This document shows, in pieces, positions 3,001 to 6,000 of a DNA stretch of 64,000 bases (the stretch's first letter is position 1; every line of letters starts with the position of its first letter). The stretch covers positions 172,769-236,768 of the forward strand of contig OZ244779.1 of NCBI GenBank assembly GCA_965219575.1, given 5' to 3'. This DNA is from Candidatus Oxydemutatoraceae bacterium (GTDB lineage Bacteria; Pseudomonadota; Gammaproteobacteria; Poriferisulfidales; Oxydemutatoraceae). The position numbers are program-made.

Positions 3001-6000
3001 CAAACTGAGATACGCAATTTGTTCTTTATTAGTCTCGTCCATTTGTGCGAGTTGCGTTGCGGTTTCAAGCACGCGCCGATAGCGCGCTGCCAGCAAATAG
3101 GCGTATGCCAGCATCCGCAGTGCCTGTTGATTATCGGGTTGTAATGCGTTTAACAATTCAAGCAGAGTGATTGCTTGAGATGCCATATTCTGTCCTAAAT
3201 AGGAATGTGCCGAACTCAGTAGCCAATGCGTATGAGCCTCATCGAGCACCTGATCCACCACTAGTCCACGAGTGCCGTTTAGCCTTGCACGAGTTGGTCT
3301 CTACCCATGCAAAAGGCATGATAGTCGTTTTGCATTTGATCGAGCAAGTTCTGCGCATCTTTTATCTTTTGCGGTTCTATATCCTTCAAGTCGGCATTCT
3401 CGGTCGATACTTTTTTCAGTAATTGATCGAGTAACGAACTATAGGTACTCGGCAACATGACATCTTTTTCGGGAAGCTGGGGATAAATCATTTTATCTAT
3501 GAGTTGCCGAGCGTAGCTGGTGTTGAAGATTTTTTCCAGATTAGACGGCTCGTGTATGCCGAGCGGCCGAGTTGCTTTTTGATCGGGAAAAACCGGCGGC
3601 CCGGCACTATCCGGCAACCTCGGTTGGTGTAATACTCTCTCTATGTTTGTGTCAAGAAAAACCGCCATTTATATTTCCTCCTGTGCTTCAAGTTGTTTGC
3701 GTGCTTGAAGCGCATCTTCGTAGATCGGAATAAAATCGGAAAATCCGGTGATATTCAGGACGCGTTTTATATTATCCGCCACCGCGCACAGTGAAAAATG
3801 CCCGTTGCCGTGCTCGGATACTTCCCTGAAGGACTTCAAGAAAACACTAAGCCCGGCACTGCTGACATAGCGCAACGACTCACAGGACAAAATAATATTA
3901 AAAATCCCGTCGTTTATTAAAGCCGACAAAGCGACATCTAAATCACCCGCATTTGTTGAGTCCAAACGACCACTCAATTTAATCAACGCCATTGCGTTAC
4001 TCTTCTCGGCTACTTGTAATTCTAGGCTACCCGAACTTAGAAAACTCATAGGTCTACATCCTCGTATAATTTGTACATTAAATCAAATGCTCGGCTTAAA
4101 TTCTCGGTCCAGGCTTGTTCGACGCGCACCATCAAAACCAAAGTATCGTTACCCCTCAAACCTATCTGCACGACCACCGGCAGAAATTTGTCGTAGTGTC
4201 CGGCGACCAATATTCGTTTCACCTTGTCGTATAGTTCGTGTGTCGGCACTTTTCTGAACAACGCTAACACGATACCGCGATCTTCGTTCAATTGTTCTAT
4301 ATCCAAAATATACTGTTCGTCGCCGATAGTAAGATTGTTGATATAGGGTGCATGTGAAGAGTTTGCCTTAAAATCGTTGAAACCAAGGTTGTGCATAAAA
4401 CCCGTCAATGCCGTATCCCACTGCGCAGACATTCGGATCACCTAGGCTTGAAATTCCCGGTCTATCGCTTTGTCCAACGCTTTCTGTACGCTTTCGGTTA
4501 GTTCGGTGCGCTTGTGCTCGTCGCCGAATGCTTTGTATGGAATCAATCGAATTAGATCCTTAAAGCCCTTAAAAAAGTATATTCTTGCATCGGCTTGATT
4601 TATGTTGAGCCTTTCCGCAATGTCTTCAACCAGTTGATCGCTGTACCAACCCTTTTCTTTTAATTCCAGCACCTGTTGCAAAAGTGCTTGACCATCATGC
4701 TTCAATGCCAAATGATAATTGCCGTGGACTTTATCCATCAGCCCGTCGCATTGATGATACATGCTCCCTAATAGTTTGAGCTGATAAATATCGTCCATGA
4801 CGGCTTTGAGATGAGATTTAGGCAAAGAACGACTATCTTTCCCGACCTCCGTCGCAAGCCCTTCGAGTAAAAAGCCGACCGCATCCATAAATTTTTGTTT
4901 GCCGTAGTCCTTGACAACCTTTTCATATGCTTGTGTGATGCTTTTATAGTCTAGTACTACATCTCGGTAAAAATCCCTGAGCTCTTGAACCGTCCCCACA
5001 CCTTGTTCGGCTGCGGCGTGCGCACTCGGGGAGACATTGATACCGGCGTGTATCTCGGGTCCGTGCCGTGCTTCCAACTGTTTGATTGCATTGCCTAAGT
5101 TTGCAATAAGCCCGGCACTCGCACCACTTTCCTTCAGGTGTTCATGGCTGTAAGAAAGTGCGAGAAATTGATGGCTGACATCGGAATAATATTTGGCGGC
5201 AAATTCCTGCAACTGCTTGGGGTTGGCGGATTTATACATTTCTGCCATCTGTTGGGCAAACGCTGCGAGTTTCTTGTTTTTTTCGAGGTCGTTGACTTGT
5301 TTTAGGTAATGTTCGGCTTGTTTCATCGCAAAAGATTTGACACCTTTTTTTGCTATTTTGCGCCTAGTGAGTTTTTTCTCCACTTCTTCGCTATGTAAAA
5401 AACTCAGTTCCTCCGCAGAATCTTCCAACATCGCAATCGGATTCTGGGCTAGAACGATGCGTTGACCTTGATAATTACCCTGCGCCGATGCCGCTCGCCG
5501 GGAGGGCTGCGCTGCGGTATTGGAAGCCAGCGGCGTGGTAGCCGGGTTGTGAACATCTACCATAATGTATTTCGTATATAACTGCGCGTTATACCCGAGT
5601 AGCTATAGCTTCGGATGTTGTATTACTACTTTGCATCAGCTGTTGCATTTGATCGAATATTTTTTCTGCATCGTTCATCACCGATTCGGCGTAGGCTTTT
5701 TTCTCTTGCTCAAAGCTCTGTCTTTGCGATGCTTGCGCCTCAATCTCTTTTGACTCGGCTTGCTTTTCGTCTCCGTAATACTTGAGTACCGTAGAAAGAA
5801 CCTGTCCCGTTCCTTGTATGACTTGGGATAAGCCTTGCGTAAAGGTGCTGACATTTTGTGCTTTTTGATAGGCGATCAAATTGCCGCCCCCTTTAGCCTT
5901 CGAGCGTAGTTTTTTCTTCGCAGCCTGCTCTTCTTCTACCGTGTTCTCCCTATCGGCTGTGCCGGGCGAATCGGTAATTTCTACCTCATTGTCGCCCGGT

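Follow-up and report, generated by a model that had tools for sequence, protein, structure and literature searches.

The partner switchers BtrU, BtrW and BtrV of Bordetella were reportedly the subject of studies by Mattoo in 2004 and Kozak in 2005. They comprise a PP2C phosphatase (BtrU), a serine kinase (BtrW) and a STAS protein (BtrV), and are needed for type III secretion 'by a yet unknown mechanism' (PMC7498569). The btr genes occupy a separate locus beside the bsc genes, together with the genes for BtrS, a sigma factor of the extracytoplasmic function (ECF) type, and BtrA, an anti-sigma factor that is secreted, and nothing is inserted into the bopN-orf4-bscX-bscY-bcrD operon, which includes counterparts of SctX and SctY, two proteins specific to the Ysc family of injectisomes (PMC7498569). 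In the SypE-SypA system of Vibrio fischeri and the HsbR-HsbA and SiaA/SiaB/SiaC systems of Pseudomonas, it is the unphosphorylated STAS protein that acts on a target other than a sigma factor (PMC8256260). Here, we analysed a stretch of 64,000 nucleotides (the window; G000:172769-236768, where G000 is the complete, single-contig, 2.37-Mb genome of a Candidatus Oxydemutatoraceae bacterium), in which the gene for a small SpoIIAA/RsbV-like STAS protein lies inside the gatekeeper operon of a Ysc-family type III secretion system (T3SS), between a sycN-like gene and sctX. Whereas partner switching in type III secretion is a theme known from Bordetella BtrU/W/V, the placement of the STAS gene within the gatekeeper operon appears to be new; full-text searches, limited by the library they covered, found no published description of it.

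The genes in question form a row on the minus strand, and their families were assigned by Pfam and NCBIfam profile searches with curated cut-offs, which the SctW, SctX, SctY, SctV and STAS proteins passed. The gene for the gatekeeper SctW (4442-5563; 373 amino acids (aa), with YopN-like and TyeA-like parts fused; HrpJ, 1.3e-29; TyeA, 9.4e-21; TIGR02568, 146.9 bits) is followed by one for a SycN-like class-I gatekeeper chaperone of 131 aa (4046-4441) and by the gene for the 126-aa, STAS-domain-only protein (3669-4049; PF01740, 4.5e-14; TIGR00377, 70.4 bits against a cut-off of 53.45). Then come the genes for the YscX-family protein SctX (3279-3668; 129 aa; PF09474, 1.4e-12; TIGR02502, 44.7 bits against a cut-off of 30), for SctY, the YscY-family TPR chaperone of SctX (2893-3261; 122 aa; NF052415, 72.8 bits against a cut-off of 70), and for the Ysc-family export-gate protein SctV (757-2886; 709 aa; FHIPEP, 5e-225). 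Among solved structures, SctV has its best relative in 7ALW, in the chain named 'Low calcium response protein' (946 bits), which we take to be Yersinia YscV/LcrD. The SycN-like assignment is weak, as SycN was the best and sole family match of this open reading frame (ORF), with scores under both cut-offs (PF21665, E 4.3e-5, 23.8 against 27 bits; TIGR02503, E 3.3e-7, 30.2 against 84.55 bits). Its orthologues in the loci L013, L159 and L161 have unmarked PF21665 matches on record, the place of the gene after sctW is kept in all relatives, and size and position fit SycN.

As read from the sequence, the ATG of the STAS gene (4049-4047) overlaps the TGA of sycN (4048-4046) by 4 bp (ATGA) and its TAA (3671-3669) abuts the ATG of sctX, which starts at 3668; both junctions had been described in the initial annotation and are borne out. 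A GAGGA Shine-Dalgarno-like motif is found 5' of the STAS ATG, the remaining gaps between the genes of the row measure 0-25 nt, and no terminator-like site was detected on the minus strand between 2886 and 6704. A promoter scan returned counts equal to chance and was uninformative. This arrangement shows the STAS gene to be an integral and, judging from its junctions, translationally coupled member of a predicted sctW-sycN-STAS-sctX-sctY-sctV operon. Gene families and gene order are those of the canonical yopN-tyeA-sycN-yscX-yscY-yscV and popN-pcr1-pcr2-pcr3-pcr4-pcrD operons, with SctW, SctX, SctY and SctV following one another in order. Unlike these operons, however, the one described here has an extra STAS gene between sycN and sctX, its SctW is encoded by one fused ORF, as is Bordetella BopN, and the T3SS genes of the genome are spread over at least three loci. 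The fused SctW gene followed by chaperone-sctX-sctY-sctV is an arrangement shared with Bordetella, in which the STAS gene is located in the separate btr locus and not between the chaperone gene and sctX. That the canonical Ysc order has no such insertion, as had been stated at the outset, is true of six related T3SS loci that lack the STAS gene as well as of Bordetella (PMC7498569).

The initial annotation had considered that the insertion might be unique to this genome, which is not the case, since it is present in 10 of the 53 species genomes of the order and also in Acanthopleuribacter-type loci. Within the order, the ten genomes that carry the STAS orthologue are precisely those that carry SctW, and they represent four genera of a single family. 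In all ten carriers, sctW/sycN lie to one side of the STAS gene and sctX/sctY/sctV to the other, with abutting or overlapping junctions, and STAS identity between the four genera falls to 35-41%. Within the genus of G000, the ratio of non-synonymous to synonymous substitution rates (dN/dS) for the STAS gene is 0.10-0.15 and thus equal to that of SycN, SctX, SctY and SctW; by this measure, purifying selection acts on the STAS gene. Beyond the order, the arrangement sctW-sycN-STAS-kinase-sctX...sctY-sctV is found in two Acanthopleuribacter-type genomes (Acidobacteriota), and in the metagenomic lineage L013 the STAS gene is located right after sctV, with a gene for an RsbW-type kinase between sctT and sctU. 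Across lineages, the commonest neighbour of the STAS gene is sctX or sctV. Whatever its history, a protein of this one kind has come to be encoded beside sctX/sctV more than once among the lineages compared. The gene is absent from the six related T3SS loci L159, L160, L163, L170, L171 and G275 (the last with a separate tyeA gene). A scan for STAS genes, in which each species was represented by a single genome, gave 80 best loci, of which 79 were partner-switch modules of the generic kind and just one, the Ca. Oxydemutatoraceae locus, was linked to a T3SS, indicating that the T3SS-embedded form is rare among STAS genes. A survey for SctW in 400 sampled genomes of the class gave matches in only two other genomes, which is too sparse to be used.

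The STAS protein is SpoIIAA-like in its predicted fold and keeps a candidate phosphorylatable serine, Ser64. A profile built from 11 T3SS-linked STAS orthologues matched SpoIIAA (1TH8) at 1.5e-20, and the AlphaFold2 model of the protein (pLDDT, the predicted local distance difference test score, 86.7) was superimposed by Foldseek on SpoIIAA (1TID/1TH8) with template modelling scores of 0.85 (query) and 0.91-0.93 (target) and a root-mean-square deviation of 1.1 Å. Structures of MlaB-MlaF were among the other fold matches of the model. The serine motif YVSSAGL, which had been noted initially, was recovered as LRYVSSAGL, and Ser64 within it aligns with the phospho-serine of SpoIIAA, that is, with the serine that is replaced by alanine in the 1TID variant. 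The alignment of the 11 T3SS-linked STAS sequences shows no variation at Ser64, Gly66 and Leu67. A second feature is a pair of cysteines, Cys56 and Cys88, which is present in nine out of nine STAS sequences of the symbiont family and lineage L013 and in none of the 100 nearest generic STAS proteins. In the canonical STAS topology, the two cysteines would be placed on neighbouring beta-strands. The pair may have a redox or metal-related role, or may simply mark the lineage.

These sequence relationships also bear on the history of the gene. The symbiont STAS proteins are mutual best matches and share their cysteine pair with L013. A common origin of the Acanthopleuribacter and symbiont STAS proteins was considered but is not supported, as the former are nearer to generic STAS proteins and lack the Cys56 signature; the Acanthopleuribacter STAS protein therefore looks like an independent recruit. 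In the SctV tree, the STAS-bearing loci of the genus of G000 (g1) and of two further genera (g2 and g5) fall into one supported clade together with loci that lack STAS, so that the gene must have been lost at least twice or else gained repeatedly. With the tree rooted on a Ysc locus with a split gatekeeper (yopN/tyeA-type) and on distant homologues, the deep backbone was not resolved, leaving both ancestral presence and repeated gain as options.

That no kinase, phosphatase or sigma factor is encoded in the window, as stated in the initial annotation, is correct, as the SpoIIE, HATPase_c_2 and Sigma70_r2 matches all lie outside 172769-236768. The suggestion that RsbW/RsbU-like partners might be found elsewhere in the genome proved fruitful, and one of each was identified, fused to one another, at G000:302620-305004. 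In the entire genome, there are two STAS matches, the gene at 3669-4049 and a 642-aa frame that resembles a SulP transporter, a single SpoIIE/PP2C match and a single strong HATPase_c_2 (RsbW-type) match, the latter two in the same 818-aa frame. The PP2C-kinase gene encodes a 794-aa protein and is located 126 kb from the STAS gene. Its product is made up of a transmembrane segment, approximately 260 periplasmic residues, a second transmembrane segment, and HAMP, PP2C and RsbW-type kinase domains; the HAMP, SpoIIE and HATPase_c_2 domains were assigned by Pfam and the two transmembrane segments were judged by eye from the translation. The metal-site motifs of the PP2C domain align with those of Rv1364c, and the N, G1 and G2 box residues of the kinase (E53, N57, E87, G90, F93, G113 and G116 in alignment A2) are invariant among fused and stand-alone orthologues. 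A direct phmmer search of the kinase domain against the PDB gave no match, and the kinase call rests on Pfam and on motif conservation. The model of the periplasmic part is of low confidence (pLDDT 59.7), with best fold matches that are consistently double-Cache (dCache) ligand-binding domains. More than 5000 homologues share the HAMP-SpoIIE-HATPase_c_2 architecture, many of them with dCache_1, and by these domain assignments the protein is a member of a family of bifunctional dCache-HAMP-SpoIIE-HATPase_c_2 sensors of about 780-800 aa.

The PP2C-kinase gene is itself part of a second T3SS operon, in which the gene order is sctI/F-like, two small genes, sctJ, sctK, sctL, yscB-like, PP2C-kinase, sctN, sctO and sctP. 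Members of this sensor family are normally encoded right after a STAS gene, as seen in L169, a generic relative, and in the majority of the 80 generic STAS loci, whereas here the two genes are 126 kb apart in two T3SS operons, and the customary two-gene module is thus split. Following the split, the STAS gene is found after the sycN-like gene and the enzyme gene after the yscB-like gene. The Yersinia gatekeeper YopN has two chaperones, SycN and YscB. The form of the enzymes varies between the genera. In the genus of G000 (g1; G000 and four other genomes), a single gene upstream of sctN encodes phosphatase and kinase as a fusion. In genus g4 (G025-G027), they are encoded by two adjacent genes (599 and 142 aa) in the order yscB-like, PP2C, kinase, sctN. 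The genomes of genera g2 and g5 (G023 and G028; each 99% complete and in a single contig) contain neither a SpoIIE match nor an RsbW-type kinase, as only weak HATPase_c_2 matches were found in long frames of 359-730 aa, none of them a small RsbW-type protein; in G028, sctN directly follows the yscB-like gene. The STAS genes of G023 and G028 are intact and keep Ser64; they are 53% identical to each other, with a dN/dS of approximately 0.20.

Two further observations concern the surroundings of the PP2C-kinase gene. In the 300 nt that separate it from the yscB-like gene, there is an imperfect direct repeat of approximately 40 nt, taGGTGGCGCAAGCGGTTaaGGTtGTGCaGAAcGGTACTT / tAGTGGCGCAAGCGGTTgcGGTcGTGCgAAGtGGTACTT (L008:12430-12600; G000:302429-302599), possibly with a regulatory function or else a small repeat element. 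In addition, two GLUG-repeat proteins of 393 and 439 aa are encoded just upstream of the sctI/sctJ operon (L008:3720-4901 and 6569-7888; G000:293719-297887).

Only two sigma-70-family genes were found in the genome, coding for RpoD and RpoH (the latter TIGR02392, 382 bits), and whole-genome profile searches detected no sigma-54, no ECF and no SigB/F-type sigma factor. RpoD and RpoH alone are a very reduced transcriptional repertoire for a free-standing genome of 2.37 Mb. Since only these two sigma factors are available and the kinase is predicted to be tethered to the membrane, a classical anti-sigma output is unlikely, and a sigma factor as the output of the STAS switch is, judging from the gene content, improbable. 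The STAS protein thus has the fold and the switch parts of its family, but probably not the classical output.

The resemblance to the Bordetella system lies in the protein types, compared by description: in both, a Ysc-family injectisome is linked genetically to a STAS protein, a kinase of the RsbW type and a phosphatase of the SpoIIE type, and the output is, in Bordetella and probably here as well, something other than classical sigma factor release. Unlike in Bordetella, kinase and phosphatase are here fused to a dCache-like membrane sensor, encoded between the yscB-like gene and sctN, and no ECF sigma factor is found anywhere in the genome. BtrV was not among the 120 best STAS matches listed. 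With SypE-SypA, HsbR-HsbA and SiaABC, the system described here shares an RsbW-type kinase and a PP2C phosphatase that, in one polypeptide or as a tight pair, would toggle the serine of a small STAS protein, and the SiaA model was a weak NCBIfam match of the PP2C-kinase fusion. Whereas those systems act in the control of biofilm formation, cyclic di-GMP or the flagellar protein FlgM, the genes studied here are embedded in secretion-machine operons. The inputs of SypE and HsbR are receiver domains, whereas a periplasmic sensor is predicted here.

Based on these findings, we propose that the STAS gene codes for the output protein of a partner switch that is dedicated to the T3SS and acts on the machine rather than on a sigma factor, a proposal that we regard as reasonably probable, though well short of certain. 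The sharper claim, that the STAS protein binds directly to the export gate or to the gatekeeper complex, is put forward tentatively. In this scheme, the dCache-like sensor would set the balance between kinase and phosphatase activity according to a periplasmic ligand, and this balance would determine whether Ser64 is phosphorylated. One form of the STAS protein would then bind a component of the gate, either in the SctX-SctY-SctV export-gate complex or in the SctW-SycN-YscB gatekeeper complex, and its binding would permit or block the export of substrates. The STAS protein would in this case be a phospho-regulated plug or adaptor, through which a periplasmic dCache sensor opens or closes the injectisome by serine phosphorylation and without a transcription step; such a mechanism is conceivable, but we would not yet bet on it. 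One might further speculate that the Cys56/Cys88 pair could add a second, redox input. Two genera without either enzyme retain the STAS gene under purifying selection; the contact with the T3SS is therefore most likely made by the STAS protein itself and not by the kinase domain, and phosphorylation would be a regulatory layer on top of this contact. As for the partner, the chaperone-gene neighbours in this family would point to the SycN/YscB-SctW complex and the adjacency to sctX/sctV to the export gate, and we prefer neither.

Several observations weigh against a phosphorylation switch that acts on the gate. G023 and G028 keep the STAS gene without a SpoIIE-type phosphatase or an RsbW-type kinase, and phosphorylation can consequently not be essential to the role of the STAS protein in these genomes. 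As six related T3SS loci lack the STAS gene, the protein is an accessory and not a core part. The recurrence of STAS genes in T3SS loci may be convergent rather than inherited, given that the Acanthopleuribacter STAS proteins are closer to generic ones. Finally, which T3SS protein is the target cannot be told from gene position alone. The idea of the initial annotation that a switch is wired to the gatekeeper or export gate has gained considerably from the discovery that the sole PP2C phosphatase and the sole strong RsbW-type kinase of the genome are fused and encoded within the other operon of the same T3SS, from the lack of an alternative sigma factor, from the presence of the insertion in four genera and in Acidobacteriota, and from purifying selection; its reading as a pure phosphorylation switch is complicated by the two complete relatives that keep the STAS gene without either enzyme.

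These two relatives also lend weight to a different explanation, in which the STAS protein would serve SctX/SctY/SctV or SycN/SctW as an accessory of a structural or chaperone-like kind and function independently of phosphorylation, with the PP2C-kinase sensor of two genera being a secondary add-on or having other substrates. In both genomes an intact STAS gene occupies the same position in the operon, and STAS proteins with roles other than switching are known, as also reflected by the MlaB-MlaF structures among the fold matches. MlaB is a STAS protein that serves as a constitutive subunit of the MlaF ATPase. The Cys56/Cys88 pair would fit such a role too, being a family-specific signature unrelated to the phosphorylation site. 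However, Ser64 and the surrounding kinase-recognition motif are invariant, the kinase and the phosphatase are, where present, the only ones in the genome and are encoded inside the same T3SS, and in Acanthopleuribacter the kinase gene directly follows the STAS gene. We consequently view a purely structural accessory as unlikely.

Alternatively, the module could regulate the transcription or translation of T3SS genes, with the kinase or the STAS protein sequestering a transcription factor, RpoH or an RNA-binding regulator, in which case the location of its genes in T3SS operons would provide a co-expression feedback loop. Classical partner switching does end in a sigma factor, and for Bordetella BtrV a post-transcriptional action has been reported, at the level of translation or of protein stability (PMC7498569, PMC8256260). 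Yet the genome has RpoD and RpoH as its only sigma factors and none of the ECF, SigB/F or sigma-54 type, a kinase tethered to the membrane within a 794-aa sensor is a poor design for the sequestration of a soluble sigma factor, and the STAS gene persists where the kinase is absent. Control at the level of T3SS gene expression is, in our view, rather improbable. That the STAS gene is left over from a generic STAS/PP2C-kinase pair that came to lie in the locus, and is carried along neutrally without a role in type III secretion, might be argued from the abundance of generic STAS and fusion pairs in unrelated contexts and from the lack of the gene in several related T3SS loci, but is hardly credible in view of its perfect co-occurrence with SctW in 10 of 53 genomes, the identical position and overlapping junctions kept over four genera at 35-41% STAS identity, a dN/dS of 0.10-0.20, and the fact that, in two genera, T3SS operons harbour both halves of the module. 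The STAS insertion is real, conserved and non-random.

Several other features of the locus and its relatives are worth recording. The row of minus-strand genes begins with a 371-aa ORF (5589-6704) whose product has a hydrophobic core segment and is weakly similar to the translocon protein SctB (NF038055, E 5e-4, under cut-off); a homologous gene precedes sctW in L011, L071, L151 and L152. The sctQ-sctR-sctS-sctT-sctU operon of the same T3SS is also encoded on the minus strand of the window, at 48300-52375, where it was located by tblastn with the SctQ/R/S/T/U proteins of L011 (G000:221071-225143; 55-90% identity). In this genome it is 44 kb away from sctV, whereas it adjoins sctV in the relatives L010, L011 and G028, which indicates that the T3SS of G000 has been broken into at least three loci. 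Directly downstream of sctV, a gene for an 861-aa protein starts on the minus strand (2-661, N-terminal part), which extends past the left end of the window (whole ORF, G000:170844-173429). The C-terminal part of the protein matches PF05925, the IpgD family of phosphoinositide phosphatases, at 4.8e-52, and IpgD-like genes also flank the related T3SS loci L160 and L168. This IpgD-like protein is likely an injected effector of the sponge symbiont.

In the Acanthopleuribacter-type loci (L161:17917-21143 and L162:16729-21137), sctV is directly followed by genes for a dCache methyl-accepting chemotaxis protein and two CheW proteins. A CheA-like kinase gene comes next after the cheW genes in L162, and L161 ends inside the second cheW gene; as far as can be told from gene content, a chemosensory array is appended to the T3SS operon in these loci. 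STAS matches are furthermore found in all 16 genomes of a neighbouring family of the order, f4 (G037-G052; e.g. L029-L044), many of them as two or three tandem genes, and these genomes contain no T3SS. Some 12 of the genomes were seen to have a 391-aa PP2C gene at a distance of approximately 5 kb, and three to have a small kinase gene.

When injectisomes open is a long-standing question, and the Btr switchers have been known since 2004 to be required for secretion, with their target open (PMC7498569). In the genome studied here, the switch gene stands beside the genes for a gatekeeper chaperone and SctX, the sensor gene beside those for a second chaperone and the ATPase, and no alternative sigma factor is encoded, which narrows the candidate targets to approximately ten proteins. 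The locus thus points to a direct, sigma factor-independent control of secretion, of a kind that has been suspected but is unexplained in Bordetella. If the STAS protein does act directly on the gate, this would provide a pathway from a chemical signal to the gate for the activation of a T3SS, and would name the missing class of target of Bordetella BtrU/W/V. Acanthopleuribacter pedis, a cultured, non-pathogenic species with the arrangement sycN-STAS-kinase-sctX, offers an experimental system. For the sponge symbiosis, our findings suggest that the injection of effectors, among them perhaps the IpgD-like phosphoinositide phosphatase encoded after sctV, is gated by a periplasmic chemical cue.

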